A DNA stretch of 64,000 nt from Flavobacteriales bacterium (GTDB taxonomy: Bacteria > Bacteroidota > Bacteroidia > Flavobacteriales > Flavobacteriaceae). Both the position numbers and the translations under genes were made by a program. This document shows positions 16,999 to 31,937 of this stretch, in pieces. Positions within the stretch are counted from its first letter, which is position 1. Each line of letters opens with the position of its first letter. The notes beneath the pieces are model-generated. The model was not told the origin of the DNA and did no database searches. It saw only the letters and a list, made by a program, of their open reading frames with translations. The stretch is taken from assembly GCA_026996605.1 (NCBI GenBank), contig JALWLE010000141.1:3086-67085 (forward strand). The letters are read 5' to 3'.

Positions 16999-17407
16999 AT
17001 TAACCGTTTGTTTTTCCCTTTATATTTTCTTACTTATTAGTCCTTGTTATAGATTAATGAGATTAGCTAATTAAGTGATAAAATATATATTATTTTGTTG
17101 TTTTCTTGTTGTCGTTGATATTCAGAGCTTTAAGTTTTTCTATTCTTGCTTTTTCCCTAACTTATTGATAGATAATATTAAAATTTCCTTATGATTTAAG
17201 ATTTATTTAGTAAAATATAAGTATAAAAAGTTTTGTAAACAGGCGATAAAAATACGGTTTTTTAATTAAATAAATTCTTTTTACTTTATCAACTAATTAC
17301 GAAACAATTGTTACATTATTTTTATTTAGAATGAATATAATTTATAAATTTGTTAACAATCTTCTAAAAACCTGATATTTTTCATAAAAATAACTTTCTC
17401 TATCTGG

Positions 17408-17415
17408 TATTTTTG
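17408..17415 (+). promoter_or_regulatory. Candidate Bacteroidota -7 box (TAnnTTTG) for the 13-gene cluster
   Basis: tatttttg lies 20 nt upstream of ATG 17435, within a 436-bp AT-rich divergent region. No clear -33 TTTG seen. Confidence 0.25.
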
Positions 17416-17434
17416 AGATGAAAATATTGCAAAT

Positions 17435-17953
17435 ATGTCAGCAAAAACTATTTCTCCAAGTCGTTATTTTTATACATTTTTTATAGTTTTTTTGATTTGG
17501 TATGCCTTTACGACTTCGTTACAACCTGCTGAAATCATAACCGGCATAGTTTTGAGTTTGGTGGTGGCATACATCACGGTAGTTAATTTTGATTGTTGCG
17601 ACCCGATTTTGATAACGCCGTCACACATTATATATTTTATCCAATACTTTTTAGTGTTTTTGGTAGCTTTGGTCAAAGCAAACTTTGATGTTGCCAAACG
17701 AGTTATTAATCCGAAATTACCAATCAATCCGGGTATTGTAAGCTTTGAGACTAAATTAAAAAATAATTTTGCAAAAATGGTTTTAGCTAATAGTATCACC
17801 TTAACCCCCGGAACCTTAACAATTGATGTAGTGGATGATAAATTTTATATACATTGGATAGACGTAACAACCGAAAATAAAGACGAAATTTATAAAGAAA
17901 TAGCCGAACCTTTTGAAAAGGTTTTGTTGAAGATATATGGCAGTAGCAAGTAG
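17435..17953 (+). CDS. MrpE/MnhE (MbxA-position) subunit of Mrp-type cation:proton antiporter module
   Basis: ANFDVAKRVINP...PGIV...LANSITLTPGTLTIDV...YIHWIDV matches the MnhE signature. The stop TAG lies inside a repeat. Confidence 0.8.
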   Translation: MSAKTISPSRYFYTFFIVFLIWYAFTTSLQPAEIITGIVLSLVVAYITVVNFDCCDPILITPSHIIYFIQYFLVFLVALVKANFDVAKRVINPKLPINPGIVSFETKLKNNFAKMVLANSITLTPGTLTIDVVDDKFYIHWIDVTTENKDEIYKEIAEPFEKVLLKIYGSSK

Positions 17954-18200
17954 AGACTAATTGTAATTCGTCTCTGTGAAAAGTGCAAATGTAGAGACGC
18001 ACGGTTGTGCGTCTGATGCGGAAAATTTGAAGAGACGTTTTGGCAAAACGTCTGAATTGAAAAATGAAAATGAAAAATTGACAATGTAGAGACGTTGCAC
18101 CGCAACGTCTGAAAAATCTAAAATCTGAAATGAATAATACATCGGACATCCGACATCAGATAACCAGTATCATCAGATAACCAAGTAACCAAATAATCAA
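17950..18200 (+). repeat. REP/BIME-like mosaic at junction 1
   Basis: Four GTAG(or GAAG)AGACG...CGTCT hairpins at 17950-17975, 17991-18018, 18029-18056 and 18086-18114. These are followed by AAATTGA/AAATCTG/ACATCSG heptamer tracts and a CA-rich AAATAACC-type tract (18158-18200) that ends at ATG 18201. Confidence 0.9.
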
Positions 18201-18458
18201 ATGAACATAGTAATATACATAGCAATTGTTTTAATCAGCATAGGTAGTTTTTTAGCTTTTATGCGTTTTGTAAAAGGACCTACGGCAGCCGACAGGGCTA
18301 TTGCCCTCGATACACTTTCGGTTATTGGAATAGCCGGATTGGTCTTATTGGGCTATTTATTTCAACGATACATTTATATCGATTTAGCACTAGTATATGC
18401 CGTTTTGGGATTTATTGGCACTATCGTGATTGCACGTTATATCGAAAAAGCATTGTAA
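18201..18458 (+). CDS. MrpF/MnhF-like subunit
   Basis: 85 aa, 3 TM. RFVKGPTAADRAIALDT motif. Confidence 0.8.
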   Translation: MNIVIYIAIVLISIGSFLAFMRFVKGPTAADRAIALDTLSVIGIAGLVLLGYLFQRYIYIDLALVYAVLGFIGTIVIARYIEKAL

Positions 18459-18823
18459 TGGATACATTAAATAATATATTGGAATACATCGGACTGTTTT
18501 TTGTGCTACTGGGCAGTATTTTTCTGTTTCTCGGTGCATTGGGAATTTATCGTATGCCCGATTTGTACAACCGCCTGCAAGCCGGCACCAAAGCATCTAC
18601 ATTAGGTGCGATGAGTATGGTTTTGGGAATAGGACTGATGCAACCCGGTTGGCTGATTAAACTTATCGTGATAATTCTGTTTATCGGGATATCCAATCCT
18701 TTGAGTTCACATGCCTTGGCAAGAGCATCGTACAAGAGTGGTATTCGTCCGTTTTTTAAGAAGAAGGTAGATGATTATGAGGAAGAAGTTGAAAGTGAGA
18801 AGGGAAAAATGGAAAGTGTGTAG
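18458..18823 (+). CDS. MrpG/MnhG-like subunit
   Basis: GALGIYRMPDLYNRLQAGTKASTLG motif. ATGA overlap with the preceding gene. Confidence 0.8.
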   Translation: MDTLNNILEYIGLFFVLLGSIFLFLGALGIYRMPDLYNRLQAGTKASTLGAMSMVLGIGLMQPGWLIKLIVIILFIGISNPLSSHALARASYKSGIRPFFKKKVDDYEEEVESEKGKMESV

Positions 18824-18845
18824 AGACGAATTGCAATTCGTCTCT
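18820..18845 (+). repeat. Single GTAG-footed REP-like hairpin (class 1) at junction 2
   Basis: gTAGagacgaattgcaattcgtctct. Its TAG is the stop codon of the MrpG-like gene. Confidence 0.85.
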
Positions 18846-18895
18846 TGTGAAAAGTGACAAAATGTAAATAGGAAGAAAAAGTAGTAAGCATTGCT

Positions 18896-18990
18896 GTCAT
18901 TTCGACAGAGCGACGTTAGGAGCGACGAGAAATCTCAAAATTATAAATTTGAAATAAACAAATAGATTTCTCACTGTGTTCGAAATGACA
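18896..18990. repeat. Second repeat family ('X' element): inverted half-sites GTCATTYCGA...GAGRAATCTC / AGATTTCTCAC...TCGAAATGAC
   Basis: The two arms are separated by 27 nt. Copies also occur at 24545-24618 and 28995-29066. Confidence 0.8.
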
Positions 18991-19018
18991 AAAAAATCAA
19001 TTAACAAAAAATAATAAA

Positions 19019-19294
19019 ATGGCTTTAATCTTATTTTTAATAGTAATGGCAATCATATTAATCGCAGCGGCAATCTATGCAGTGATGCAAAAAGATTTAT
19101 TGTATGCCGTTTTGGCAACGGGTATTATCAGCGTGGTACTATCCGTGTTTTTTTATCTGTTGCAGGCACCTGATGTGGCTATCACCGAAGCTGCAATAGG
19201 CATTGCTTTAACAACGATAATTTTTATCATTACCATACGAAATACATCACGAAATGAAGAGGAATACAGTGAGGATCATATCAAGAAGTTTTAA
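19019..19294 (+). CDS. MbhD/MrpB-N-terminal-like (DUF4040-type) small membrane subunit
   Basis: 91 aa, 3 TM. LQAPDVAITEAAIG motif typical of MbhD/MnhB N-terminal domain. Confidence 0.7.
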   Translation: MALILFLIVMAIILIAAAIYAVMQKDLLYAVLATGIISVVLSVFFYLLQAPDVAITEAAIGIALTTIIFIITIRNTSRNEEEYSEDHIKKF

Positions 19295-19309
19295 GTGGAA
19301 AATGCGAAC

Positions 19310-19528
19310 GTAGAGATGCACAATTGTGCGTCTGATGTAGAGACGAATTGCAATTCGTCTCTGTGAAAAATGCGAATGTAGAGACGCACGGTCGTGCGTC
19401 TGATGCGGAAAATTCGTAGAGACGTTTTGGTAAAACGTCTGAATAAAAAATTGTAAATGTAAAATTGATAATGTAGAGACGTTGCACCGCAACGTCTAAA
19501 ATCGAAAATCTGAAATCTGAAATCTGAA
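19310..19528 (+). repeat. REP/BIME-like mosaic at junction 3
   Basis: Five hairpins at 19310-19337, 19337-19362, 19378-19405, 19416-19444 and 19473-19497. An (AAATCTG)n tract then runs directly into ATG 19529. Confidence 0.9.
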
Positions 19529-20248
19529 ATGAAAAAATACATCATATTCATATTAATTGCCATATTGGGTTTGACATTAGCGCAGACCTTTAAAGCCATT
19601 CCTTTTGGAGCGGATAGACGTGGCGATTTGGAAAATCCGGATAAAGTAGCAGCATATTATTTAAAAGAATCACCGGAAACTTTGCAAACGGCTAATTCCA
19701 TTACGGCTATCGTTGTGAATTTCAGGGGGTTTGACACATTAGGCGAAGTAACCGTTTTGTTTTTAGCAGCAACTGGATTAGCAAGTATTTTATATCGAAA
19801 AGAAGAAGAAGATGAAGAGGAAGTAGAACGCGTTCGTTTGCCATCATCAAGTTTGGTACGAACAGGTGCCAAAATCTTATTTCCGTTGATGTTATTGTTG
19901 GGAATTTACGTGTTTGTACACGGACATTTAACACCGGGTGGAGGATTTCAAGGAGGCGCCATTATTGCTACCGGATTTTTGTTGATGCTGATAACCTATA
20001 AGCATTTTGAAACCAATCACAAGGTAATGGTTTGGCTTGAAAGTTTGGCCGGCTTGGCATTTGTAGCAGTCGGGCTTTACGGTTTGTTTGCCTATGGGTC
20101 GTTTTTGCAAAATACACATTCCGTCGGCACGCTGAACGATTTAATCAGTGGAGGCTTAATTCCTTTAATTTATATTTTTATCGGAATTAAAGTCGGCACG
20201 GAATTGACGAATATTTTGGATATTTTGTTGAAGATTAAAAAAAGCTGA
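19529..20248 (+). CDS. MrpB/MnhB-like subunit
   Basis: NSITAIVVNFRGFDTLGEVTVLF signature, followed by TM helices. Confidence 0.8.
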   Translation: MKKYIIFILIAILGLTLAQTFKAIPFGADRRGDLENPDKVAAYYLKESPETLQTANSITAIVVNFRGFDTLGEVTVLFLAATGLASILYRKEEEDEEEVERVRLPSSSLVRTGAKILFPLMLLLGIYVFVHGHLTPGGGFQGGAIIATGFLLMLITYKHFETNHKVMVWLESLAGLAFVAVGLYGLFAYGSFLQNTHSVGTLNDLISGGLIPLIYIFIGIKVGTELTNILDILLKIKKS

Positions 20249-20291
20249 CGCTTTTTTAGTGCGAAGTGGAAAGCGATAAAGTGGAAAGTGC

Positions 20292-20579
20292 GTAGAGACG
20301 AATTGCAATTCGTCTCTATGAAAAATACGAATGTAGAGACACACAATTGTGCGTCTGATATAGGAAGCGCGTAGAGACGTTTTGGTAAAACGTCTGAATT
20401 GAAAATTGAAAATGAAAAATTGAAAATTAATAACGTAGAGACGTTGCACCGCAATGTCTGAAAATCAAAAATCGAAAATCTGAAATGAATAATACATCGG
20501 ACATCCGACATCGCTCATCGGACAAATCATCCGACATCAATTAACCAAATAACCGGTATAACCAAATAACCAAAAATAA
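20292..20579 (+). repeat. REP/BIME-like mosaic at junction 4
   Basis: Four hairpins at 20292-20317, 20333-20359, 20371-20398 and 20435-20463. These are followed by heptamer tracts and a CA-rich tract ending at ATG 20580. Confidence 0.9.
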
Positions 20580-20972
20580 ATGACAGAATTTAACGACTTG
20601 TTCATCAAATATAAAGATCTGATAACCATTGCGGTTTACGGGACGGCTATAATGTTGATTTTGATTGGCTTATATGCCGTATTGCTCAAAAAACATTTGG
20701 TAAAAATAGTCATCGGCTTATCTATTATTGATGCCGGTGTGCATTTGCTTTTTGTAGCGGTGGGCTATATTCAAAATGGTACGGCACCCATCTTTTCACC
20801 CGGCAATGAACATGCTGCGAGTAAAATGGTTGACCCTGTTCCGCAAGCATTGGTATTGACGGCAATCGTTATTGGTTTTGCCGTAACGGCTTTGGCTTTG
20901 TCCTTGGTTATTCGATTATACAAGCATCATCATACAGCAAATATTGATCAAATAAAATCATTGAAATGGTAA
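20580..20972 (+). CDS. MrpC/MnhC (NuoK-like) subunit
   Basis: 130 aa, 3 TM. DPVPQALVLTAIVIGFAVTA motif. Confidence 0.8.
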   Translation: MTEFNDLFIKYKDLITIAVYGTAIMLILIGLYAVLLKKHLVKIVIGLSIIDAGVHLLFVAVGYIQNGTAPIFSPGNEHAASKMVDPVPQALVLTAIVIGFAVTALALSLVIRLYKHHHTANIDQIKSLKW

Positions 20973-22447
20973 TTAGTCCGGTTCATTATATCGTAGCGCC
21001 TTTGTTGGCGGCTTTTGCAATTCCGTTGCTCACCAAGCTTTATAAAGATGCGGCGCGTGTGGTGCCGGGAATTGTCTTGTTTTACAATGTCATAATTTCC
21101 TTTGTGTTGATGCAGCAAGTATCGCAAACCGGAATGATTAGCGAAGTGCTTGCCGGTTGGCGTCCGCCTTGGGGCATCAATTTGGTTTTGACACCTTTTA
21201 CGGCATTTTTGGCGACAATGATATCGGTTTTGGGTTTTATCATTTGGCTTTACGGCTTCCGCTTTAAGCGAACATTGAAGGGTGGGGTTGTCAAGCATTA
21301 CGAAATACTGCAAATGATGATGGTTGCCGGTTCTATTGGGGTGATTATTACCGGTGACTTGTTCAATATGTTTGTGTTTATCGAAATTGTCGGTATTACA
21401 GCCTATTCACTTACAGCATTTTACCGGGAGAGAAACGGTGCCGAAGCAGGTTTTAAATATTTATTAATCGGAAGTTTGGCTTCTACATTTCTGTTATTAG
21501 CTATTTTGATTATTTATACACAAACCGGCACGCTTAATATGGCGCAAATTGCTGAAAGAATGGCTTTTGTTCCGCATACAATGAAAGTAACCGCCTTAAT
21601 ATTTTTCTTAATAGCCTTGGGTATTGAAGCTGAAATGTTTCCGCTCAATGCTTGGGCACCGGATGCTTACGAGCAAGCACCTTCGCCAACAAGTGCCACC
21701 TTTGCTGCAGTGGTTTCCATAGCAGGCGTGTATGCTTTGGTTCGGGTATTGTTTACTTTGTTTGACGTATCAGGCGTGCATAATTATTTGATTGTAATGG
21801 GGTTTGTAACGATGTTGGTAGCGGAAATTACCGCTATTGCACAAAAAAATCTCAAACGAATGTTGGCTTATTCCAGTATCGGTCAAGTGGGCTTGGTATT
21901 GATTGCCTTTGGTATCGGTAGCAAGTTGGCGGTGTTTGGTGCAATATTTTTGATGCTCAATCATGCAGTTATTAAGTCCTTACTGTTTATGACAGGTAGT
22001 TATTTTATCTATAATGCTGATGACAAACGTTTGATTGGCTTAAACGGTATGCACAAACAGTTGCCTTATGTATCCGCTTTGTTTTCATTGGCTGCCTTTG
22101 CCATAGTGGGCTTTCCGCCTTTTTCAGGATTTTGGAGTAAATTTTATATCCTGATTTCGGCATCCGACCAAAAAATGATGTATCTGATTATTGGTATTTT
22201 GTTGGTAACGATTATCGAATTGGTTTACTATTTACGGGCAGTCGGACGTATTTATTTTGCCAAAGAAGAAATGGAAGACGTTGCACATCGTCCGTCTGTC
22301 AATGCTTTGGTGGCGATGTCATTATTAGCTTTGTTTATCATTGTAGTCGGTGTTTATCCCGATATTGTTACCGGCTATCTCAATGATGCCGCTAGTGCGT
22401 TATTAGATAAAGCGCATTATATTCAACAAATTTTAGGAAGTAAATAA
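20966..22447 (+). CDS. MrpD/NuoM/N-like proton/sodium-translocating antiporter-type subunit (MbxH position)
   Basis: 493 aa, about 14 TM. Conserved AYSSIGQVG and LNHAVIKSLLFM motifs. Overlaps the upstream gene by 7 nt. Confidence 0.8.
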   Translation: MVISPVHYIVAPLLAAFAIPLLTKLYKDAARVVPGIVLFYNVIISFVLMQQVSQTGMISEVLAGWRPPWGINLVLTPFTAFLATMISVLGFIIWLYGFRFKRTLKGGVVKHYEILQMMMVAGSIGVIITGDLFNMFVFIEIVGITAYSLTAFYRERNGAEAGFKYLLIGSLASTFLLLAILIIYTQTGTLNMAQIAERMAFVPHTMKVTALIFFLIALGIEAEMFPLNAWAPDAYEQAPSPTSATFAAVVSIAGVYALVRVLFTLFDVSGVHNYLIVMGFVTMLVAEITAIAQKNLKRMLAYSSIGQVGLVLIAFGIGSKLAVFGAIFLMLNHAVIKSLLFMTGSYFIYNADDKRLIGLNGMHKQLPYVSALFSLAAFAIVGFPPFSGFWSKFYILISASDQKMMYLIIGILLVTIIELVYYLRAVGRIYFAKEEMEDVAHRPSVNALVAMSLLALFIIVVGVYPDIVTGYLNDAASALLDKAHYIQQILGSK

Positions 22448-22451
22448 GATT

Positions 22452-24302
22452 ATGGAAATGAACAGTTTAGCTATCATATTAGGCGTACTTTTTACCGGCA
22501 GTATTTTGACGTTCAGCATTGATACATTCAATCGAAAACTCACCGGATGGACAGCATTTGCAACGCTTCTTATTGCTACAATATATTTTTATACCACTGG
22601 AAATGATGCTGATTTTAGTTTACAAATTGGTGGGATAACCTTAAAATGGGGACTATCGGCATTTCGCCTATTTTTCATAAATATCGTATTGATATTGGGT
22701 GTTTTAGCACTACTTTATTCCATCGGATATATGAAAGGAAAAGCCCGTTTGGGCTATTTTTACGCATCCTTTGTAATGACGATTTTAGGAATGTTCGGTG
22801 TAGTTATCAGTAAAGATTTCGTGTCCCTATTTATCTTTTGGGAAATTATGACTTGGTCGTCCTTCCTATTGATTATTTACAATGCCTATTACAAGATTAA
22901 AACAGAAGGACTGAAATATATGGTTTTTAGCGCTATCGGTGCGTATGCAATGCTGACAGCTATCGTTTTTATTTATCATTTTTACGGCACATTTGATATA
23001 GCCGAAGCGATGCAGAAAGGTGTCTTTTCGTTTGAAAATCACGCTTTTATACCCATATTTTTGGCATTGGGATTTGCCATAAAAGCCGCCGTGATGCCCT
23101 TTCACGTATGGGCACCTTCGGGTTATGCTAACAGTCCGATGTCATTTACATCAGTATTTTCTGGTGCAATGTCCAAAATGGGCGTGTTTGGACTCTTGTT
23201 GATTTTTGCAACTTATTACACATCTCATACACCGGGTGCTTATGTGTTCACGCAAATTCTGGCGTGGATGGGTGGTATTACCGCTGTGATGGGGACTATT
23301 TACGCACTCATACAAAACGATGCCAAAAAATTGTTGGCATATTCATCTATTGCACAATTAGGATACATTGTAGTGGCACTGTCCACAGGAACCAAATTGG
23401 GCGTAATGGCAGCCCTGTTTTTAGCGGTATTACACGCTGCCTTTAAAGGCGCCTTGTTTATGGTAGCAGGTGCGGTCGAAAAGCAAGCCGGCACTACGGA
23501 TATGACCAAAATTTCGGGTTTAATCAGAAAAATGCCATGGACGTTTTTTGTTGCCTTGGTTTCTGTTATTTCATTGGCTGGTGTGCCACCACTTGGGGGA
23601 TTTATCGGAAAATGGCTCTTATATGAAGCTTTGATTACCGAAAGTCATAACTATTTCTTGGTCATTGTGATATTTTTTTCATCGACAGCGGCATTTTTGT
23701 ATGCTTACCGATTTTTATTCGGATTATTTTTAGGACAAGAGGAAAAAGAAACAGAAAATGTAAAAGAAGCCCCTTTGACGATGCTCGTTCCGATGATTGT
23801 TTTGGCATTGGTTTCTATCATTACAGGTGCGATGCCCGGATTGATTTTTAAACCGGCAGCCGTAGCGATGCGAGATATCGGCTTTTCATCTATGGATTGG
23901 CAAATGTCCACATTATCAAATGTTTGGGGTAATAATGTAGATGTCAGTTTGATTGGTGCATTTATAGGTATTGTTTTCGTTTTGATTTTTGCATTTTTGA
24001 CATTAAAAGGACGTAAAACAACCCGTAAAGTTGGCACCAAAGAAATTTCCAGTTCAGGAGAATTGTGGAAAGAAGGCGAGAATTGGACCTTTCAACAAGA
24101 TTTTTTCAAACCCTTTGAACGCGCCGCATCGCCTTTATACAAGTTGAAAATGAACAAAATATGGGAAGATTTGGGTAATGCATTAGAAGCATTCTTTAAT
24201 TTTTTCAGACGCATATATACCGGCAATGGACAGACGTATGCGATGTATGTTGTGGGATTTCTTGTTTTGTTGATTTTGTTTAGAGATTATATATTTAAGT
24301 AG
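22452..24302 (+). CDS. Second antiporter-type subunit, NuoL/MrpA/MrpD-like with C-terminal extension (MbxH' position)
   Basis: 616 aa. FWEIMTWSSF, AYSSIAQLGY and LHAAFKGALFM motifs. An extra ~130-aa tail ends in a TM helix. Confidence 0.8.
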   Translation: MEMNSLAIILGVLFTGSILTFSIDTFNRKLTGWTAFATLLIATIYFYTTGNDADFSLQIGGITLKWGLSAFRLFFINIVLILGVLALLYSIGYMKGKARLGYFYASFVMTILGMFGVVISKDFVSLFIFWEIMTWSSFLLIIYNAYYKIKTEGLKYMVFSAIGAYAMLTAIVFIYHFYGTFDIAEAMQKGVFSFENHAFIPIFLALGFAIKAAVMPFHVWAPSGYANSPMSFTSVFSGAMSKMGVFGLLLIFATYYTSHTPGAYVFTQILAWMGGITAVMGTIYALIQNDAKKLLAYSSIAQLGYIVVALSTGTKLGVMAALFLAVLHAAFKGALFMVAGAVEKQAGTTDMTKISGLIRKMPWTFFVALVSVISLAGVPPLGGFIGKWLLYEALITESHNYFLVIVIFFSSTAAFLYAYRFLFGLFLGQEEKETENVKEAPLTMLVPMIVLALVSIITGAMPGLIFKPAAVAMRDIGFSSMDWQMSTLSNVWGNNVDVSLIGAFIGIVFVLIFAFLTLKGRKTTRKVGTKEISSSGELWKEGENWTFQQDFFKPFERAASPLYKLKMNKIWEDLGNALEAFFNFFRRIYTGNGQTYAMYVVGFLVLLILFRDYIFK

Positions 24303-24305
24303 CAA

Positions 24306-24654
24306 GTAGAGACGTACGGTCGTGCGTCTGATGAGGGATAAGAGATAAATTAGTGGAAAGTGGAAAGCGTAGAGACGAATTGCAATTCGTCTCTGTGGAA
24401 AAAGAAAAATATGTAGAGACGCACGGTCGTGCGTCTGATGTAGAAATTGTGTAGAGATGTTTTGGTAAAACGTCTAAATAGAAATTTAAAATTGATAATG
24501 TAGAAACGTTGCACGCAACGTCTGAAAAATATGCAATGAATAGTGAGATTTCTCACTACGTTCGAAATGACAGGCGTTGTCATTCCGACAGAGCGACGAA
24601 GGAGCGACGAGGAATCTCAAATAACCAAATAACCGATTAACCAAATAACCAGAA
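24306..24654 (+). repeat. REP/BIME-like mosaic at junction 7, including an X element
   Basis: Five hairpins at 24306-24333, 24369-24394, 24413-24440, 24451-24475 and 24500-24527. X element at 24545-24618. CA-rich tract at 24619-24654 abuts ATG 24655. Confidence 0.9.
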
Positions 24655-25608
24655 ATGATATTAACAATCAAAATATTAGGCGCATTACTAACCGCAATCT
24701 TGGCTTTTACAGTCGGGATGTTTTACGGTGGTTTACGACGTAAGATTACGGCGCGTGTACAAAATCGTGTAGGACCGCCGGTTTACCAGAATTTTTTAGA
24801 TTTAATGAAATTGCAAGCCAAAGAAACCAATATTGCGCACGGTTTTATGGGGCATATGGCACCAATGTGGATTATCATAGCGGCGATGACTGTTTTGATG
24901 TTTATTCCCGTCTTGCACAACGGTTTATGGTTTGACAATTTAACCTTTAAAGGCGATTTGATTTTCATCCTTTATATGATGGTCTTTGGGTCATTGGGAA
25001 TGGCATTAGGTGCCGGACAATCCGGTAATCCCAATTCGGCAATTGGTGTAACTAGGGGTTTGGCAATGATGGTGGGTTATGAAATTCCGTTTGTGTTGTC
25101 ACTGGTAGCCATTATGATACAATTTCATACGACATCCTTGCAAGATTTAATGCAATACCAACAAGAAACCGGTAGATGGATTATTATGGAGAATCCCTTT
25201 GCATTTCTAGCGGCATTATTATCTTCCTTGGGAATGTTTCGCTATTCGCCTTTTGATATTGTAGGCGCACCGGCAGAATTGGCATCGGGACCGGTATCGG
25301 AATTCGGTGGCAAATATCTCGGAACAATGATGAGTGGTGGTGCTGTGTTTGCCTTTATCAAATTGGTTTTGTTTGTCGATATTTTCTTGGGAGGCGCCGG
25401 TAATACGGAATTAGAAGGTATTCTAGGCACATTAGCAGGATTAGGTGAATTGTTATTAAAAACATTTTTGTTTTATATGATTCCCGTTTTTATCGGATTA
25501 GTTAGTCCCAGATTTAGAACCGAACAAGCCATTCGATTTTTTTGGAAATGGCCAACGTTTTTAGGGATTTTAGCAATTGTTTGGGCGTTGTATCATCCTA
25601 TTCGTTAA
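24655..25608 (+). CDS. NuoH/MbhM/HyfC-like membrane subunit
   Basis: RKITARVQNRVGPP motif and about 8 TM helices. Confidence 0.8.
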   Translation: MILTIKILGALLTAILAFTVGMFYGGLRRKITARVQNRVGPPVYQNFLDLMKLQAKETNIAHGFMGHMAPMWIIIAAMTVLMFIPVLHNGLWFDNLTFKGDLIFILYMMVFGSLGMALGAGQSGNPNSAIGVTRGLAMMVGYEIPFVLSLVAIMIQFHTTSLQDLMQYQQETGRWIIMENPFAFLAALLSSLGMFRYSPFDIVGAPAELASGPVSEFGGKYLGTMMSGGAVFAFIKLVLFVDIFLGGAGNTELEGILGTLAGLGELLLKTFLFYMIPVFIGLVSPRFRTEQAIRFFWKWPTFLGILAIVWALYHPIR

Positions 25609-25621
25609 AAATTAAAAGTGT

Positions 25622-25826
25622 GTAGAGACGAATTGAAATTCGTCTCTGTGGAAAGTTAAAAGTTGAATGTAGAGACGTTTTGGTAAAACGTCTGAATTGA
25701 AAATTGAAAATGGATAATTAATAAATAACATCCGACATCGGTCATCCGACAATCAATAAACCAGTATCATCAAATAACCCCTGATGAGAATCGGGGTAAG
25801 CAAATAACCACATAACCGAAAATAAA
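25622..25826 (+). repeat. REP/BIME-like mosaic at junction 8
   Basis: Hairpins at 25622-25647 and 25669-25696. ACATCSG-like tract. CA-rich tract with embedded hairpin cccctgatgagaatcgggg, ending at ATG 25827. Confidence 0.85.
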
Positions 25827-26480
25827 ATGACAAATAATCCGGACAAAAATATCAAAACACTCGGCATACCAACCGAAGATGAAATTCGTCAAGCGCAGAT
25901 TGAATTTGCGCCGCGTTGCACATCAGCCGGGCGGGTCAATGATAAGGAAACGCAAAAAATGGTGCAATATATTTTGAACTTTGCTCGTAAGCATTCATTG
26001 TTTGTCTTAGCTTATGGCACTGGTTGTGGCGCTATTGAAATTCCGGCAACGATGACATCCCGTTACGATGCGGAACGCTTTGGAATTCGCGGGGCGGCAA
26101 CCCCTAGGCAAGCAGATGTCTTGCTGATTACCGGTTACCTATCCACCAAAACCTTAAAAAGAGTTATCCGCGTGTATGAGCAAATGCAAGACCCTAAATA
26201 TGTCATTGCTTTTGGTTCGTGTACCATTAACGGTGGGATGTATTTTGACAGTTATAATACTATCAAAGCGCTCGACCGGTATTTACCGGTAGATGTATAT
26301 ATCGCAGGATGTATGCCGCGTCCCGAAAGTGTGATTAAGGGCTTTATCAAATTACAAGAATTAATACAAAACGGCAATGCCGGCGGTGGCAAATGTTATC
26401 GCGATAATTTGGAATGGTATCGTGCCAATCAACAAAAAGTAATCAAAAATTGGGATTTTCCCGATGAGTATAATTGGTAA
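25827..26480 (+). CDS. NuoB/MbhJ-like [4Fe-4S] small subunit
   Basis: GTGCGAIE...RQADVLLITG...GSCTINGG...GCMPRPE. The first motif has a single Cys where NuoB has CC. Confidence 0.8.
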   Translation: MTNNPDKNIKTLGIPTEDEIRQAQIEFAPRCTSAGRVNDKETQKMVQYILNFARKHSLFVLAYGTGCGAIEIPATMTSRYDAERFGIRGAATPRQADVLLITGYLSTKTLKRVIRVYEQMQDPKYVIAFGSCTINGGMYFDSYNTIKALDRYLPVDVYIAGCMPRPESVIKGFIKLQELIQNGNAGGGKCYRDNLEWYRANQQKVIKNWDFPDEYNW

Positions 26481-26487
26481 GTGAAAC

Positions 26488-26522
26488 GATGATATGGTTA
26501 TTTGTTGATATGGTTATATGAT
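26488..26522. repeat. TG-rich tract, the inverted counterpart of the AAATAACC/ATATCATC tracts
   Basis: gatgatatggttatttgttgatatggttatatgat is complementary to 26920-26965 downstream of the four-helix-bundle gene. Confidence 0.7.
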
Positions 26523-26547
26523 AGTTGAACAGAAAAAAGGATATTGA

Positions 26548-26913
26548 ATGAAACGACAATTTTCTTTTGAAAAATTAGAAGTTTGGCAAAATGCAATTGA
26601 TTTATCGATTGATGTTTATCAATTGACGAAAGATTTTCCGGATGAAGAAAAATTTGTTTTAGTTAATCAAATGAGGAGAGCAGCCTTATCCATTTCGTCA
26701 AATATTGCAGAAGGAAACGGTAGAGAAACAAATAACGATCAAGCCAGATTTACAACAATGGCATACGGCAGTCTGATGGAATTATTAAACCAATTGATTT
26801 TTTCCTATAAATTAGGATATATATCAGAAAATCAATTAGACGAATTAAGAGATAAGATTAATCTTATTTCAAACCAATTAAACAGATTAAGAAAATATCA
26901 AAAAAACAGATAA
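26548..26913 (+). CDS. Four-helix-bundle protein (23S rRNA intervening-sequence / Avd-like family) inserted inside the operon
   Basis: 121 aa. FEKLEVWQNAIDL...QMRRAALSISSNIAEGNGR...SLMELLNQL pattern of the S23-IVS family. Confidence 0.8.
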   Translation: MKRQFSFEKLEVWQNAIDLSIDVYQLTKDFPDEEKFVLVNQMRRAALSISSNIAEGNGRETNNDQARFTTMAYGSLMELLNQLIFSYKLGYISENQLDELRDKINLISNQLNRLRKYQKNR

Positions 26914-26919
26914 CCTATT

Positions 26920-27044
26920 AACCAATATCATCAAATAACCAGTTAACCAATATCATCAAATAACCCCCGACAATAGTTGGGGTAAGCAGATAATCAAATA
27001 ATCAGTATAACCAGTTAACCGATTAACCAAATAACCAATAAGAA
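26920..27044 (+). repeat. CA-rich AAATAACC/ATATCATC tract array with embedded small hairpin, abutting ATG 27045
   Basis: aaccaatatcatcaaataacc occurs twice, then cccccgacaatagttgggg, then ataaccagttaaccgattaaccaaataacc. Confidence 0.85.
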
Positions 27045-27602
27045 ATGCAAGAAAACATATTAAATCAACTCAAAAAAGTCTTTAAAATTGATGGCGAGAT
27101 AAAAACGCCAATGCGAATAAAAATCGTAGCAGACAAGGACTTGGTGTCGAGTATTTTGCTTTATTTAAAAAATCAGATGGGTTTTATCCACTTGAATCAT
27201 ATGTCTTGTGTGGATTGGATTGAGGACAATAAATTTGAGTTGGTGTATATCGTTTGGCATCCGGAACAAAAGCAAACCGTTTTGGTGCATACGTTTATCG
27301 ACAGGAATAATCCGGTAATGGAAAATATAGATACGATATGGGATCAAGCCAATACCTACGAAAGGGAAATGCGAGAGATGTATGGAATAGAATTTCCCGG
27401 ATTGATAGGCGCTAAAGAATTTATTTTAGAAGATTGGCAAGAAATGCCCCCGATGCGACGTGATTTTGATACGAAAAAATATGCACAAGAAACCTATGAA
27501 ACGCGTCCCGGAAGAGAAAACGCCCGTGATGTAAGAGAAGAATTGATGAAACGAAGCGGCGAAGAATTACCGGATTTTGCGAAAAAGTATTCTAGGGATT
27601 GA
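27045..27602 (+). CDS. NuoC/MbhK-like subunit
   Basis: ANTYEREMREMYGIEFPG signature (ERE..D/E.GI.F). Confidence 0.8.
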   Translation: MQENILNQLKKVFKIDGEIKTPMRIKIVADKDLVSSILLYLKNQMGFIHLNHMSCVDWIEDNKFELVYIVWHPEQKQTVLVHTFIDRNNPVMENIDTIWDQANTYEREMREMYGIEFPGLIGAKEFILEDWQEMPPMRRDFDTKKYAQETYETRPGRENARDVREELMKRSGEELPDFAKKYSRD

Positions 27603-27642
27603 GTGTTTAGTGGAAACCGGAAAAGTGCTAAGTGGAAAGTGC

Positions 27643-27792
27643 GTAGAGACGTTTTGGCAAAACGTCTGAATTGAAAATTGAAAATGGATAATTGACAACG
27701 TAGAGACATTGCAAGCAACGTCTAAAAAATCTGAAATCTGAAATCGCAAATCTGAAATATAAAATCAAATAACCGATTAACCAAATAACCAA
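27643..27792 (+). repeat. REP/BIME-like mosaic at junction 11
   Basis: Hairpins at 27643-27670 and 27700-27727. AAATCTG heptamers. CA-rich tract ending at ATG 27793. Confidence 0.85.
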
Positions 27793-28896
27793 ATGTTAGA
27801 AAAAGAAACAACCTTATATTTAGGACCACAGCACCCGGGGATTACCGGAAATATGATGATAAAGCTCAAAGTCAAAGGCGATGTGGTAACACAAGCCGAA
27901 ACGCACGTTGGGTATTTGCATCGGGCTTTTGAGAAACTGATTGAAGGACGCAATTGGTTACAATCCTTTACGTTATTGTGCCGTTTTTGTGTACCGGAGC
28001 CGGACCCTATGGAACTGACATATGCACGTGCCGTAGAGCAAATCGAAGGGCGTGAAGTACCGCCACGTGCTAAATATATCCGGACTATCGTTGCGGAATT
28101 AGCTCGTATTCAATCGTTTTTGTTGTGGTATGGCGGTCAATCCGGTTCGAGTGGTTTATACACATTGGGACAATGGAGTGTCGGAGACAGAAACTATATT
28201 CTCGACTTATTTGAAGATCTGACCGGTGCACGAATTTATCATATGTATATGTGGCCCGGTGGTGTGCGTCGCGATTTGCCGGAAGGTTGGGTTGATAAGG
28301 CATATAAGACGATGGATTATCTGGAAAAACGATTAGATGATTACAATAAATTATTATTTGACAATGCCATTTTTCAAAAACGGGCACAAGGTGTCGGCAT
28401 TATCCCCAAAGATAAAGCCATAGAATGGGGCGTTGTAGGCGCACCGTTGCGTGGCACCGGTATTAAGCACGATGTGCGTATCGATGAACCTTACGAAGCT
28501 TACTCCGATTTGGATTTTGTTGTGCCAACTTACGAAGGAGGTGACGTGTGGGCAAGAGCACTCGTTCGTAGAGATGAGATTAAGCAATCTATAAGTATTA
28601 TCAGACAAGCTCTGGATAAAATGCCGGGCGGTAGTTATTACAATCGTATTCCAAACCCGATGAAATGGACGGTTCCGGCAGGAGAAGCTTGGGTAAAAAC
28701 CGAAAGTGTCCGTGGCGAAATAGGATTTTATGTGGTCAGTGATGGTAGCAACAAACCAAGACGGGTACATTTGAAAGGTGCTGCTTATACACACGGTGTT
28801 AGTGTGTTGGAAAAAATATTGCCCGGACAGAATATTGCCGATGTATCATTTATTTTGAATTCGTTAGGCGTTTGTCCCCCGGAGATTGAGAGGTAG
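27793..28896 (+). CDS. NuoD / group-4 [NiFe]-hydrogenase-large-subunit-like protein with an incomplete Ni-Fe ligand signature (MbxL/MbsL-like)
   Basis: GPQHPGITG start. HVGYLHRAFEKL. LLCRFCVPEPDP where hydrogenases have RxCGxCxxxH. C-terminus LGVCPPEIER where hydrogenases have DPCxxCxxR. Confidence 0.8.
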   Translation: MLEKETTLYLGPQHPGITGNMMIKLKVKGDVVTQAETHVGYLHRAFEKLIEGRNWLQSFTLLCRFCVPEPDPMELTYARAVEQIEGREVPPRAKYIRTIVAELARIQSFLLWYGGQSGSSGLYTLGQWSVGDRNYILDLFEDLTGARIYHMYMWPGGVRRDLPEGWVDKAYKTMDYLEKRLDDYNKLLFDNAIFQKRAQGVGIIPKDKAIEWGVVGAPLRGTGIKHDVRIDEPYEAYSDLDFVVPTYEGGDVWARALVRRDEIKQSISIIRQALDKMPGGSYYNRIPNPMKWTVPAGEAWVKTESVRGEIGFYVVSDGSNKPRRVHLKGAAYTHGVSVLEKILPGQNIADVSFILNSLGVCPPEIER

Positions 28897-28926
28897 CTAG
28901 CGCGAGTTAAAAGTTGATAGTTGGAA

Positions 28927-29066
28927 GTAGAAACGCACGATCGTGCATCTGATGTAGAAAGCGCAGATGAATTGAAAATTGAAAATGGAGAATTAGATTT
29001 CTCACTGCGTTCGAAATGACAGCAATTGTCATTCCGACAGAGCGAGGGACGAGCGACGAGGAATCT
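28927..29066 (+). repeat. Degenerate REP-like hairpin plus X element at junction 12
   Basis: gtagaaacgcacgatcgtgcatctgatg at 28927-28954. X element agatttctcactgcgttcgaaatgaca-gcaat-tgtcattccgacagagcg...gaggaatct at 28995-29066. Confidence 0.8.
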
Positions 29067-29173
29067 AATCTAAAAATTTGATATGTAATAATAAGTTTTA
29101 AGAAGATGTCATTTAAAAAGTAGAATTTTGGTTTGTATTTCTGCAAGGCACTTCACACTAAAAAATATAGACA

Positions 29174-30964
29174 ATGAGTATAATAGATTTGAAAGGCATA
29201 TTAACACCAATGACGGCGCTGAAGCAAATTGGAAAACAACCGCATACCATAAGTTTTCCAGATGAGCAGAAAGATATTTCGCCGCGTTATAGAGGTTTTC
29301 ATTACAACGATTTGGAGCAATGTATCGGTTGTGGCAACTGTGCGACTATTTGTATGAATGAAGCCATTGATATGATTGCATTGGCGGGCATTGAGGGACA
29401 AGCCGGTGATAGTGGCTTACGCCCGCAGATAGACTATGGGCGTTGTTGTTATTGTGCCTTGTGTGTCGATGTATGTCCGTCAGGCTCGCTCAATATGACA
29501 CAAGATTTTATCAAAGTCAGCCCTGATCCTTTTGATTTCTTGATGGTGCCGGGTAAGGACAATCCCGAGGCAAAAGAAAAATTGAGTTTTACGGCAGATC
29601 TAGATACATCGCTCAATGTATTTGACCGTGTGCCAATGCGTGAACTCGACCCGGAAGAACGGGTAAAATCTTTTGCCGAAGTATTTTTGGGCTATAACGA
29701 AGAAGAAGCCCGTATTGAAGCCAGTCGTTGTATCAGTTGCGGACTTTGTACTGAAAATTGTCCGGTGCATATGCACATACCGGAATATATCAATGCCATT
29801 GCCAAAGCTGATGATGAAGCGGCAATTAAGATCATTTATGACAATAACGATTTACCCGAAATGTGTGGTAAAGTTTGTACTCGTCGTTGTGAAGATGTTT
29901 GTGCGTTGCAGGTAAGAGGAGAAGCCGTTGCGATTCGTTGGCTTAAACGCTATGCAACCGAACGGGCTGAAAATGCCGATATGATTGCCGAAATTGTCAA
30001 TCCTGAAATCAGAGAACCGAATCAATATAAAGTTGGTATTATTGGTGCCGGTCCGGGTGGATTAACCGCTGCATATTATTTGGCATTACGCGGTTACAAT
30101 GTAACGGTTTACGAAGCGCATAAAGATCCGGGCGGTATGATAATGTATGGTATTCCAAAATACCGTTTGCCGTATGAAAGTATCCAAAAACAGGTGGATT
30201 ATATGAAAAAAGTTGGTGTAAAAATACATTTCAATACGGTGGTTGGAAAAGATATAAGTTTTGATGAAATTTATAACAACAGCGATGCCGTTTTTATGGC
30301 GGTTGGACTGCAAGATGCATGGAATTTGGGCATAGAAAATGACGATGCCAAAGGTGTATGGTCTGCTATTAATTTTCTAGGAAAAGTCAATTCCGGCGAA
30401 CCGGTTGATATTGGAAAACGCGTCGTTGTAGTAGGCGGTGGTGATGTGTCTATTGACTGTTCTCGTGTATCGCGCCGTTTGGGTGCCGAAGTTTATCAAT
30501 CTTACAGACGTCGTATTCAAGATATGCCTGCGGATTTAGAAGAAATTGAAGGTGCAGAAGCCGAAGGTGTACATATTATGCCACAAACCATTCCGACACG
30601 TGTGATTAAAGACGAAAACGGTAAAGTCAAAGGATTGGAATACGTCAGAGCCGAAATGATTTCGGAAGGCGGTGGACGTCCGCGACCAAAACCTATTGAG
30701 GGCAGCGAAACCATAATCGAATGTGATGCCGTGATTGCCGCAATCGGACAAAAAGCTGATTACAGCTTACTACCGGAACATATTTTAGCCAAATTGGAAA
30801 TGCAAAAAAATAAAATTGTGGTGGATGAGAATAGGAAAACATCTATTCCTAAATTATTTGCCGGTGGTGATGCCGTTGTTTCCGGTCGTAATGATGCCAT
30901 TTCGGCAATTGCAGATGGCTACGCTGCTACAAAAGCGATTGATGCGATGTTGATGGGGAGTTAA
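29174..30964 (+). CDS. Fusion protein: NuoI/MbhN-like 2x[4Fe-4S] ferredoxin domain plus GltD/SudA/NfnB-like NAD(P)H-dependent FAD oxidoreductase
   Basis: N-terminal CIGCGNCATIC and CCYCALCVDVCP. Then RCISCGLCTENCP...MCGKVCTRRCEDVC, and GIIGAGPGGLTAAYYL...GGMIMYGIPKYRLP plus a second Rossmann VVVVGGGDVSID. Confidence 0.85.
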   Translation: MSIIDLKGILTPMTALKQIGKQPHTISFPDEQKDISPRYRGFHYNDLEQCIGCGNCATICMNEAIDMIALAGIEGQAGDSGLRPQIDYGRCCYCALCVDVCPSGSLNMTQDFIKVSPDPFDFLMVPGKDNPEAKEKLSFTADLDTSLNVFDRVPMRELDPEERVKSFAEVFLGYNEEEARIEASRCISCGLCTENCPVHMHIPEYINAIAKADDEAAIKIIYDNNDLPEMCGKVCTRRCEDVCALQVRGEAVAIRWLKRYATERAENADMIAEIVNPEIREPNQYKVGIIGAGPGGLTAAYYLALRGYNVTVYEAHKDPGGMIMYGIPKYRLPYESIQKQVDYMKKVGVKIHFNTVVGKDISFDEIYNNSDAVFMAVGLQDAWNLGIENDDAKGVWSAINFLGKVNSGEPVDIGKRVVVVGGGDVSIDCSRVSRRLGAEVYQSYRRRIQDMPADLEEIEGAEAEGVHIMPQTIPTRVIKDENGKVKGLEYVRAEMISEGGGRPRPKPIEGSETIIECDAVIAAIGQKADYSLLPEHILAKLEMQKNKIVVDENRKTSIPKLFAGGDAVVSGRNDAISAIADGYAATKAIDAMLMGS

Positions 30965-31504
30965 TAAGTGGAATGTATTTAGTGCCAAGTGAAAAGAGGT
31001 AAAGTTTAAAGAGACAAAGTAGGACATTTAAAATAATACCAATTCCAAATATAAAATAGTCCAAAAGGATTTGGGGTATTCCCGATTTATAGAGACAGAT
31101 TATACCGATATTCATAAAAATAGTTCAATTTTCCGGAAATTATCATGATTTTGATTATGATAATCAAAAAAATGAGAACCGTAAATAGGATGTGAAACGA
31201 ACCTACAATAACAATCAGATTAAGAGGTTTATTTATCGTTTTATAGCAATTGCAAGAAAATGGATGCATCAATGGCGGTAATGGGTGTTAAAACTCTACA
31301 CTAATCGACCGTATTATACAGGTTGATTGATCGAAAAACATATCTTAAATGTTAAATACAGGGAAGGGAATATTTGGTTTTTAAATAGATAATTGTTGAT
31401 AACCGGACTGTTATGTTTTATTTGTAAAATTATGCTCTTTATTTGTTTAAAAGTATAACTAGTCTTTTCAAAATTATCTATTGATAAGCTAAAAAAATAT
31501 TAGC

Positions 31505-31836: not shown

Positions 31837-31937
31837 TAACTCTTTTTACGTTAAATTTTAGATAATAAATACGGAAAAAATTCTATTTTTAAAATTTTTA
31901 TATCTTGTTTCGGATTGATAGCATATTAACTATGATT

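Follow-up and report, generated by a model that had tools for sequence, protein, structure and literature searches.

GTAG-tagged REP hairpins and ordered repeat tracts occupy the gene junctions of an MBX/Mrp-type operon in an uncultured marine Flavobacteriaceae bacterium

GTAG REPs were surveyed by Di Nocera et al. 2013 (PMC3733652), and the TnpA-REP/RAYT transposases are treated by Nunvar et al. 2010 (PMC2817692). A GTAG REP is a short stem-loop with a 5' GTAG tag, and its sub-families differ by compensatory changes in the stem. The elements follow coding regions, where the neighbouring genes are co-directional or convergent, and form clusters "reiterated in tandem along with flanking DNA". 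They have a cognate Y1/HUH transposase gene that is physically tied to the REP, and the use of the TAG of the tag as a stop codon has been described (PMC3733652). The hairpins presented here share each of these traits. However, the survey reported GTAG REPs in Proteobacteria, Cyanobacteria, Chloroflexi and PVC, and only CGTC repeats in Bacteroidetes, while head-to-tail units were described as absent or under-represented (PMC3733652). Our elements belong to Bacteroidota and are all head-to-tail. Furthermore, their copy number is low (25-60), their foot, at 9 nt, is longer and does not vary across the phylum, many genomes have the REP in frame within the RAYT gene and not merely beside it, and the RAYT is dead in the source genome.

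The BIMEs of E. coli are also mosaics of several REP classes with conserved linkers, found at many intergenic sites including intercistronic ones, where the REPs are credited with stabilising upstream mRNA segments. BIMEs alternate the orientation of their REPs (PMC2817692). In our locus the REP orientation is uniform, and the hairpins are followed by ordered arrays of period-7/8 tracts that continue up to the next start codon.

The MIRUs of Mycobacterium tuberculosis are confined to intercistronic operon spacers and contain small ORFs that bridge the flanking genes. They resemble our repeats in being intercistronic and oriented with transcription, but every frame of every junction is here closed by 2-15 stops, and the longest open stretch in any junction is 156 nt, so they are not MIRU-type repeats. 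The STRR arrays of heterocystous cyanobacteria are intergenic tandem heptamers with a 7-nt period and several sequence classes per genome, similar to our tracts. The sequences are, however, unrelated, and the arrays here are transcription-oriented, mutually ordered and tied to REP hairpins.

The window, i.e. the whole stretch of 64 kb that was analysed, comes from an uncultured marine Flavobacteriaceae genus. At 17435-30964 (+) it contains an MBX/Mrp-type respiratory-complex operon of 13,530 nt, identified by Pfam matches, with 13 subunit genes and one inserted IVP gene. The genes are mrpE, F, G, mbhD, mnhB, mrpC, mrpD1, mrpD2, nuoH, nuoB, nuoC, nuoD and a nuoI-gltD fusion. This order is kept across 39 orthologous loci, the dN/dS compared with relatives is 0.04, and Pfam assigns 10 of the 13 products to integral membrane subunits.

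Ten junctions are occupied, as the earlier note on this DNA had stated, but out of 13 and not twelve when the inserted IVP gene is counted. The three empty ones measure -1, -7 and +4 nt. The spacer lengths given in that note (247, 195, 234, 331, 352, 218, 67, 131, 190 and 277 nt) were reproduced and cover 2,242 nt of the 13,530-nt cluster. The occupied junctions contain 24 GTAG-footed hairpins of four stem classes (H1 to H4), three X hairpins and period-7/8 tracts. In every junction the units follow a single order, H1-H2-H3-[AAATTGA]-H4-(X)-[AAATCTG]-[ACATCSG]-AAATAACC-ATG, with a leading extra H2 in two junctions. The linkers between the units are conserved; a 165-nt block is present in four copies that are 61-91% identical. 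Both the fixed order and the conserved linkers had been noticed in the earlier note.

The fullest copy is found between mnhB and mrpC (20249-20579, + strand, as are all features of the operon described here) and consists of an AAGTGGA tract, H1 (20292), H2 (20333), H3 (20371), an AAATTGA tract, H4 (20435), and AAATCTG, ACATCSG and AAATAACC tracts leading to the ATG. The mrpE>mrpF junction (17950-18200) contains H1' (17950), followed by H2 (17991), H3 (18029), an AAATTGA tract, H4 (18086) and the same three tracts before the ATG. Between mbhD and mnhB (19295-19528) we find H2 (19310), H1 (19337), H2 (19378), H3 (19416), an AAATTGA-like tract, H4 (19473) and an AAATCTG tract before the ATG; 19341-19519 of this junction is 91% identical to 17954-18134 of mrpE>mrpF over 181 nt. 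The mrpD2>nuoH junction (24303-24654) contains H2 (24306), an AGTGGAA tract, H1 (24369), H2 (24413), H3 (24451), a tract, H4 (24500), an X hairpin (24545-24621) and a AAATAACC tract before the ATG.

In mrpG>mbhD (18820-19018) H1 (18820) is followed by the X arms in B...A order (18895-18990) and an A-rich leader. The nuoH>nuoB junction (25609-25826) has H1 (25622), H3 (25669), AAATTGA and ACATCSG tracts, and a AAATAACC tract with a small CCCC...GGGG hairpin before the ATG, and nuoC>nuoD (27603-27792) has an AAGTGGA tract, H3 (27643), AAATTGA, H4 (27700), AAATCTG and AAATAACC before the ATG. Finally, nuoD>nuoI-gltD (28897-29173) contains a degenerate H2 (28927), an AAATTGA tract, an X hairpin (28994-29070) and about 100 nt of unique leader.

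The nuoB/nuoC junction (26481-27044) is occupied by a cassette with a left arm of inverted GGTTAT tracts (about 26488-26522), the IVP gene (26548-26913) and a right arm of AAATAACC tracts (26914-27044). The gene encodes 121 aa of the 23S-rRNA-IVP family (Pfam PF05635, E 8e-39) and is the sole IVP gene in the genome. As in a 23S rRNA IVS with an IVP gene, the gene is flanked by inverted arms, which form a long stem and pair in both the MFE and the centroid fold (z -3.98). In contrast to the IVS, this cassette resides in an mRNA operon and its arms are built from the local AAATAACC tract vocabulary.

The operon hairpins are GTAG-tagged REP elements of a patchy, phylum-wide Bacteroidota family with its own RAYT. 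All 24 units have the constant foot GTAG+AGACG, a variable inner stem and a closing CGTCT, with N8-13 between foot and CGTCT; the stems are 8-10 bp long, within the 6-13 bp of REP stem-loops, and the loops 0-4 nt. Allowing at most one mismatch, GTAGAGACG matches the window 28 times, compared with 3.3 matches expected by chance. The footed junction hairpins account for 24 of these matches, all on the + strand, in agreement with the earlier observation that the units are oriented with transcription. The match at 20311 (-) is a palindromic unit read in reverse, the one at 28568 is a chance match inside coding sequence, and those at 38526 and 43970 are chance matches without a hairpin.

Among the 31 distinct inner stems, 3.77 of four positions pair, whereas shuffled partners give 1.84 and never more than 2.52 in 1,000 shuffles; the sub-families thus differ by complementary stem changes. 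The units are extragenic and lie mainly downstream of ORFs whose neighbours are co-directional or convergent. The TAG of the foot is the stop codon of mrpE (17951-17953) and mrpG (18821-18823), and beyond the operon it supplies stops at C31:66640, C37:19108 and C53:6471. The hairpins form separate folds, in line with the prediction (z -2.7 and -3.3), and in the centroid fold the ~50-70 nt directly before the start codons stay unpaired. In decayed units, A·C mismatches are by our by-eye reading as frequent as G·U pairs, so an RNA-specific signature is absent.

Related element types fit less well. A REPIN moves as an inverted REP doublet, but the 24 operon units are all on the + strand, head-to-tail, and this uniform orientation also separates them from BIMEs despite the conserved linkers. 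Symmetric double-footed units are found elsewhere in the genome, on C37, C133 and C143. No REP is among the terminator-like sites, and the sequence downstream is A- or purine-rich, unlike that of Rho-independent terminators. A search of Rfam 15 returned only one chance-level match, to a snoRNA model (24 bits against a gathering score of 70 bits, E 0.25).

The REP family is present in 84 of 301 sampled Bacteroidota genomes and in 13 of 14 congeners, and it is linked to a RAYT gene physically as well as in abundance, as expected of a REPtron. In G198 the RAYT ORF carries a REP on both flanks, and a REP lies inside or beside the RAYT gene in six other genomes and four congeners (including G007, G008, G006, G011, G159, G151, G075, G247 and G105). 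The only family match of the RAYT is NCBIfam NF047646, at E 1e-14 to 1e-17 and under its 80-bit cut-off. Congeners with a RAYT, intact or fragmentary, have 5-64 REP strand hits, compared with 0-8 in those without (Mann-Whitney p 0.002). The source genome (G000) retains only broken pseudogenes, C133:8669-9203 and C83:12326-12656.

The earlier note saw the mosaics in one operon and nowhere else in the 64-kb window. This is correct for the window, where no similar elements were found elsewhere, but it does not hold for the genome. Of the 1,217 other co-directional junctions, 98 contain elements of this vocabulary (tracts, X element and some of the REPs) in the same order. The Bat operon of C100 provides an example, and the order was noted at C22, C31, C53, C100 and C142. 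Sense orientation is found in 88 of the 98 (p 1e-16), and for the TAACC tracts alone the sense to antisense ratio outside the operon is 61:1; the polarity is thus genome-wide. Equal density everywhere would have spoken against operon specificity, and here the picture is divided: the elements are widespread but not equally dense. Occupancy is 77% (10/13) in the operon and 8% (98/1,217) elsewhere (Fisher p 4e-9), in a test that used 12-mers drawn from the operon itself, a crude ORF-based gene call and a 149-contig MAG. The operon also holds 15 of the 25 distinct exact REP units of the genome in 0.57% of its sequence. The mosaics are not operon-specific, yet strongly enriched, conserved and persistent in the operon.

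The recurrence of hairpin clusters every 1-2 kb, in an operon where most products are membrane subunits, could point to a function in the DNA, similar to what has been proposed for the BIMEs of E. coli. Gyrase, IHF-like or other nucleoid proteins would be bound by the clusters, which would relieve the supercoiling caused by a long membrane-protein operon that is transcribed, translated and inserted simultaneously; such roles of REPs and BIMEs in DNA topology have been reviewed (PMC3733652). We regard this as improbable, as DNA binding needs no strict sense orientation of the kind seen genome-wide, the hairpins after stops and the CA tracts before starts are left unexplained, and no binding protein is identifiable here.

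Orthologous operons were compared, a check that the earlier note had named. The 39 operons are compact except within this clade, with junctions of -13 to +60 nt outside it, and the operons of the congener G006 and of ~30 other lineages lack the modules. The inflated junctions are therefore a derived state, and since orthologous operons without mosaics are the rule, the complex can do without the modules. Most junctions find their best match in a paralogous junction of this operon rather than in their orthologue from the closest relative, which shows that the blocks have spread locally, by block duplication or conversion. The local amplification suggested earlier is thus borne out, also by the operon's share of the exact REPs. 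A 99-nt stretch of the nuoD>nuoI-gltD junction matches the mrpE>mrpF junction of G001 with 96% identity.

Collapsing or mis-joining of repeats during the assembly of a short-read MAG could mimic such arrays; our genome is in 149 contigs, and contigs of several relatives break within these junctions. We give almost no credence to such an artefact, because gene order and junction positions agree over independent assemblies from different studies, G001 has the same kinds of modules on a 316-kb contig, and the copies differ by 9-39% and can be resolved by an assembler.

A purely selfish or neutral build-up has more in its favour. REPs, X MITEs and slippage-prone tracts would be tolerated in the junctions of long operons and do nothing useful, and their polarity and order would be the residue of purifying selection, e.g. 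against copies that terminate transcription or occlude starts. A mobilising RAYT family exists, most orthologous operons, that of a congener included, lack the modules, and the same vocabulary is seen in 8% of other junctions. Species whose proteins are 97% identical have had their junction content wholly replaced. Moreover, selfish genes occupy the same junctions in relatives: besides IVP there is plainly selfish cargo in G013, a PIN toxin pair and a RhuM/Fic-like gene. We nevertheless consider this explanation rather doubtful, because the junction sequence shows signs of constraint. The alignable part of the mrpD2>nuoH block is 91% identical to its G001 orthologue (242/266), compared with 66% at four-fold sites (932/1,421; p 3e-19). 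G001 and G013 lack a RAYT, and their exact REPs are found only in this operon (8/8 and 3/3); given an ancestor with the proportions of G000, the chance of the 8/8 in G001 is 0.006. Late independent insertion of consensus copies, and not selection, could explain part of the mrpD2>nuoH identity.

Concerning transcription, TAnnTTTG is the consensus of the Bacteroidetes -7 box. Two such boxes (17345 and 17408, within 17345-17416, + strand) are found upstream of mrpE, and this region is likely the single promoter of the operon, judged from its sequence. Separate transcription units, with modules carrying promoters or terminators that split the cluster, are very improbable. Spacers of 190-350 nt could hold a promoter, and a sigma-70-type scan gives many weak matches. 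However, the promoter-like count (65) does not exceed that of shuffled sequences (55.6 ± 9), all ten occupied junctions together contain one -7 box (18944), no REP of the operon is followed by a T run, and the compact orthologues with overlapping genes indicate that the cluster was ancestrally one operon.

We favour the interpretation, with a probability of about 0.6, that the REP/X/tract modules are transcribed intercistronic stem-loops followed by unstructured CA-rich leaders, which spread locally and whose RAYT has since decayed. It builds on the REP identity, the distribution, the derived state, the local spread and the constraint. In one clade of the genus, REPs would have filled nearly every non-overlapping junction of the MBX-type operon, and the MITE-like X hairpin and the period-7/8 tract arrays would have arrived together with them. 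The composite module of ~180-330 nt would then have been carried as a block into further junctions through duplication or gene conversion, before the RAYT decayed in the source genome. If one promoter upstream of mrpE transcribes the whole operon, every module would be part of the polycistronic mRNA, and the fixed polarity and order may reflect that the parts sit where the mRNA tolerates or needs them.

Stable stem-loops right after the upstream stop codon may act as barriers to 3'-to-5' decay, and where the stop codon is part of the foot or directly adjacent to it, the hairpin could be a brake on termination; a REP-near-stop effect has been described that is consistent with this placement (PMC12306157). 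The junction leaders contain only 5-7% G, and as unpaired G-poor leaders they fit the rules of initiation in Flavobacterium (PMC6847099). These CA-rich unstructured tracts, with stops in all three frames, would leave the following start codon accessible to the Shine-Dalgarno-blind ribosome of Bacteroidia. A possible role in mRNA stabilisation or processing, as the earlier note had suggested, gains indirect support, at the level of sequence, from conservation far above the neutral benchmark and from persistence in relatives without a RAYT. If the operon is co-transcribed, the modules may influence mRNA half-life or the ratios of the subunits.

The 13-gene cluster at 17435-30964 on the plus strand encodes an MBX/MBS-type complex, in the order mrpE, mrpF, mrpG, mbhD, mnhB, mrpC, two mrpD-type antiporter subunits, nuoH, nuoB, nuoC, nuoD and a nuoI-gltD fusion. 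Between nuoB and nuoC, within the operon, lies a gene of the 23S-rRNA-IVP family (121 aa). The 13 operon genes are under strong purifying selection, with a dN/dS of 0.04 and a dS of 0.54 against the congener G001. The source genome, G000, has 2.38 Mb in 149 contigs at 35% G+C, the window being C141:3086-67085. Judged by their isolate names, the MAGs of close relatives appear to originate from hydrothermal and cold-seep sediment.

The ten spacer lengths listed in the earlier note are exact and total 2,242 nt, while the other three operon junctions measure -1, -7 and +4 nt. The fixed unit order that it described also holds in all junctions: hairpins of the stem classes H1, H2 and H3, an AAATTGA tract, H4, (a MITE-like hairpin, X), AAATCTG, ACATCSG and AAATAACC tracts, and the ATG. 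Two junctions start with an additional H2 ahead of this order. The linkers are conserved, as it stated: a 165-nt block is present in four copies with 61-91% identity, and junctions 1 and 4 are 91% identical across 181 nt. The foot of the hairpins, GTAGAGACG, has 28 matches in the window with at most one mismatch, against 3.3 ± 1.8 expected. Of these, 24 are footed hairpins in operon junctions, without exception on the plus strand, and two beyond the operon have no hairpin. In the predicted folds the hairpins form independently (z -2.7 and -3.3), and the final stretch upstream of each start codon stays unpaired in the centroid structure. Of the four tract units, three (AAATTGA, AAATCTG and AAATAACC) include a stop codon and the period is 7 or 8, so an array shuts all three frames within ~24 nt, for example at 18054-18078, 19495-19530 and 24618-24651. 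At 31500-31840, 3' of the last gene of the operon, lies a repeat of another type, ACCCCTACGGGGT and its relatives, which has CCCC-TACG-GGGG mini-hairpins.

GTAG-REPs have been defined by a GTAG tag, a short stem-loop, sub-families with complementary stems and a site after an ORF, where the TAG can serve as stop codon (PMC3733652). The operon hairpins fit this definition of GTAG-tagged REPs. The TAG of a REP foot is the stop codon of mrpE (17951-17953) and of mrpG (18821-18823), and five genes end in this way, including those at C31:66640, C37:19108 and C53:6471 of G000. The mrpE of the congener G003 has the same ...AAGTAG ending without a REP; the foot thus overlaps a GTAG that was already there, which is what insertion or capture at GTAG would produce. 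Among 31 distinct inner stems, drawn from G000 and from loci of its relatives, 3.77 of 4 positions pair, compared with 1.84 for shuffled partners.

The exact pattern GTAGAGACG-N8-13-CGTCT is present in 13 of 14 congeners. In an even sample of 301 Bacteroidota genomes, 84 carry it, from 58 of 144 genera, and the reversed-pattern control is near zero. A survey from 2013 listed GTAG REPs for Proteobacteria, Cyanobacteria, Chloroflexi and the PVC group; for Bacteroidetes it listed CGTC repeats alone (PMC3733652). The GTAG-REP/RAYT system, i.e. REPs and their REP-associated tyrosine transposase, is now extended to Bacteroidota. In viral-classified contigs of IMG/VR (L081, L096, L158, L164, L190 and others), 42 of 164 pattern matches are true GTAGAGACG-footed hairpins, on contigs of 43-66% G+C. 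None of the 15 viral records examined carries a Y1 transposase gene, and these contigs indicate only that the GTAGAGACG hairpin family is broad. A search of the literature for the literal GTAGAGACG returned primer sequences alone, and an Rfam search gave no RNA family. GAGACG/CGTCTC is a type IIS restriction site; the idea that the foot serves as such a site was rejected, as its count ranks an unremarkable 19th of 60 among hexamers of the same composition.

Pfam Y1_Tnp scans of the genome and the genus identified no gene with a GTAGAGACG hairpin within 1.5 kb. The scans did pick up IS200-like genes, as well as a RAYT-like gene of 210 aa whose inverted flanks are GC-rich. This second, unrelated RAYT-like gene (C60:50190-50830 in G000) is flanked by GC-rich inverted repeats, not GTAG REPs, a context that matches the alternative RAYT setting of PMC3733652. 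The cognate RAYT came to light only after the phylum-wide search, in the most REP-rich genomes. One of these, G198, has a RAYT-like ORF with HUH and C-terminal Tyr motifs and a REP at both flanks, and G105, G159, G151, G075 and G247 each have a REP inside or adjoining the RAYT ORF (G247 at two loci). The congeners G007, G008, G006 and G011 have an intact RAYT gene (L246, L249, L250 and L252, respectively) with an internal in-frame REP directly after the HUH motif; an internal in-frame REP is also recorded for L226, L229, L231 and L233-L235. In the congeners the REP is translated as V-E-T...S/A-L, with short in-frame tandem repeats at both sides (e.g. GLHGLHGLH). We know of no previous description of a RAYT that carries its own REP in frame. 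The sole family match is NCBIfam NF047646 (REP-associated tyrosine transposase), with 54-63 bits, under the 80-bit cut-off; the weak Pfam scores probably reflect a domain split by the inserted REP.

In G000 this RAYT is present twice, broken in both cases. At C133:8669-9203 (locus C133:8669-9361) the HUH motif has become HIN, the internal REP foot supplies a stop and the frame differs in the C-terminal half, while the copy at C83:12326-12656 has an internal deletion. Across the genus, genomes with a RAYT have 5-64 REP strand hits versus 0-8 in RAYT-less genomes (p 0.002).

The claim that the repeats occur in a single operon only stands within the window and fails in the genome, where each tract type and X are found 22-90 times on many contigs. 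Using exact 12-mer probes from the operon junctions and a crude longest-ORF gene call on the fragmented MAG, 98 of 1,217 co-directional junctions elsewhere in G000 are occupied, a rough lower bound given operon-derived probes and a fragmented assembly. The units are in sense orientation in 88 of the 98 (binomial p 1e-16), and TAACC tracts alone show a sense:antisense ratio of 61:1, scored against transcription, with which the orientation of replication is confounded. The identical unit order recurs at C22:21000, C31:66640, C53:6471, C100:10150 and C142:1190. The second-best example in the genome is a Bat-type aerotolerance operon (C100:3700-11640; MoxR ATPase, DUF58, VWA proteins and a TPR protein), in which five inflated junctions of 161-381 nt use the same units, identically ordered. 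The operon is exceptional all the same, with 10 of 13 junctions occupied versus 8% at other junctions (p 4e-9, odds ratio 38), although the mosaics are not specific to it. Runs of more than three occupied junctions occur in G000 only in the operon, and 15 of its 25 distinct exact REP units sit there, in 0.57% of the genome. Four loci of relatives (L019, L021, L022 and L023, from G010, G012, G004 and G006) have contig ends in or near mrpD2>nuoH or a junction next to it. The junction repeats seem to interrupt short-read assembly, and the genome-wide counts from MAGs are therefore lower bounds.

For the orthologous operon, we compared eight relatives obtained by genome search and 39 loci from public genomes. 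Beyond the immediate clade, all junctions are between -13 and about +60 nt. In the congener G006 they are 29-54 nt, despite 62 REP strand hits elsewhere. Junctions of hundreds of nt are confined to the clade whose nuoH is at least about 85% identical, and there the pattern is species-specific; mrpE>mrpF has no REP in G001 (protein 97% identical) versus four in G000. In the operon of the congener G013 (L020/L051), junction DNA amounts to 5.7 kb. There, nuoH>nuoB and nuoC>nuoD contain a RhuM/Fic-like gene of 327 aa and a PIN-domain toxin preceded by a small partner, and mrpD1>mrpD2 is 366 nt instead of the usual 4 nt.

The local amplification proposed in the earlier note is supported, since most G000 junctions match another junction of the same operon best, not their orthologue. 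Further, nuoD>nuoI of G000 is 96% identical to mrpE>mrpF of G001 across 99 nt. The IVP cassette of G000 (26481-27044, in nuoB>nuoC) is 85% identical to that in mrpD2>nuoH of G003 across 433 nt. These matches show that blocks move between junctions. G000, G001 and G013 have a single IVP gene each, which lies in the operon in all three but at a different junction every time, and nine of about 21 IVP matches in the clade lie within it (L016, L017, L018, L019, L020 and L021). The cassettes have inverted copies of the genome-typical 7/8-mer tract at their flanks, and these pair into a long stem that encloses the ORF. The REP/RAYT identity and the local spread are well supported.

Between G000 and G001, four-fold sites of the operon genes are 65.6% identical (1,421 sites), and 68-69% in mrpD2 and nuoH. 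Where the orthologous mrpD2>nuoH junction can be aligned, it is 91% identical (242 of 266; p 3e-19 versus four-fold sites), with 93% in REP columns and 90% in the remaining ones, and nuoD>nuoI reaches 82% (p 1e-6). The RAYT-less G001 and G013 have eight and three exact REPs, every one in the operon and in sense; the G001 assembly has 20 contigs and is 99% complete. Junction identity and operon-only REPs after RAYT loss are hard to reconcile with the free decay of dead repeats. The conservation and persistence could alternatively come from a late insertion of consensus copies, before the RAYT was lost. Dating of the paralogous blocks by identity was abandoned, because the orthologous block is under constraint. 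A joint reading, which we hold tentatively and consider somewhat unlikely, is that the REP mosaics would be host-adopted intercistronic RNA modules under purifying selection that outlasts the RAYT, that the operon would be the last refuge of REPs in RAYT-less species, and that the tract arrays would make its junctions preferred landing sites for cassettes.

An RNA function of the modules may be proposed from their layout. None of the operon REPs is followed by a T run, and TAnnTTTG, which we take to be the Bacteroidetes -7 box, occurs twice upstream of mrpE versus once across all junctions; intrinsic terminators or internal promoters in the junctions are thus unsupported. The first terminator-like site on the plus strand, at 31585, is supplied by the ACCCCTACGGGGT-type repeats downstream of the operon. 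Overlapping genes in the compact orthologues show that the genes ancestrally formed one transcription unit. Together, the missing T runs, the -7 box distribution and the compact orthologues point to one polycistronic mRNA that would carry every module. Bridging ORFs of the MIRU type are ruled out, as all three frames are closed in the tracts, and mismatches in decayed units (G·U versus A·C, by eye) show no RNA-strand signature.

On such an mRNA, stable hairpins stand 0-43 nt 3' of the upstream stop. Intercistronic REPs of E. coli shield upstream segments from 3' exonucleases, and E. coli genes with a REP at a distance below 16 nt from their stop are translated less. The latter effect is documented in PMC12306157. 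The tracts 3' of the hairpins are A/C-rich and G-poor (5-7% G versus 11% in average leaders). Initiation can depend on low structure instead of Shine-Dalgarno pairing (PMC6847099), and these G-poor, A/C-rich, frame-closed tracts would suit ribosomes that rely on it. Overall, we consider it fairly probable (about 0.6) that the mosaics are REP/RAYT-derived, locally spread modules with an RNA function in one mRNA.

Few bacterial repeats have been known for longer than REPs, yet whether they are junk or a host tool is still disputed, mostly on the basis of E. coli and Pseudomonas. Here, another phylum provides a natural experiment, with the same 13-gene operon in three states: empty, as in most lineages; filled, with a live RAYT; and filled, with the RAYT and all other exact REPs lost. 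The rules of intercistronic design differ in Bacteroidota, whose ribosomes ignore Shine-Dalgarno sequences. The case also reveals RAYT genes with an in-frame REP of their own. Should the modules be neutral, it would still be a clean example of local block conversion saturating one operon with repeats. As conservation of the filled junctions exceeds that of synonymous sites, whether intercistronic REP arrays tune a multi-subunit operon becomes a directly testable question.
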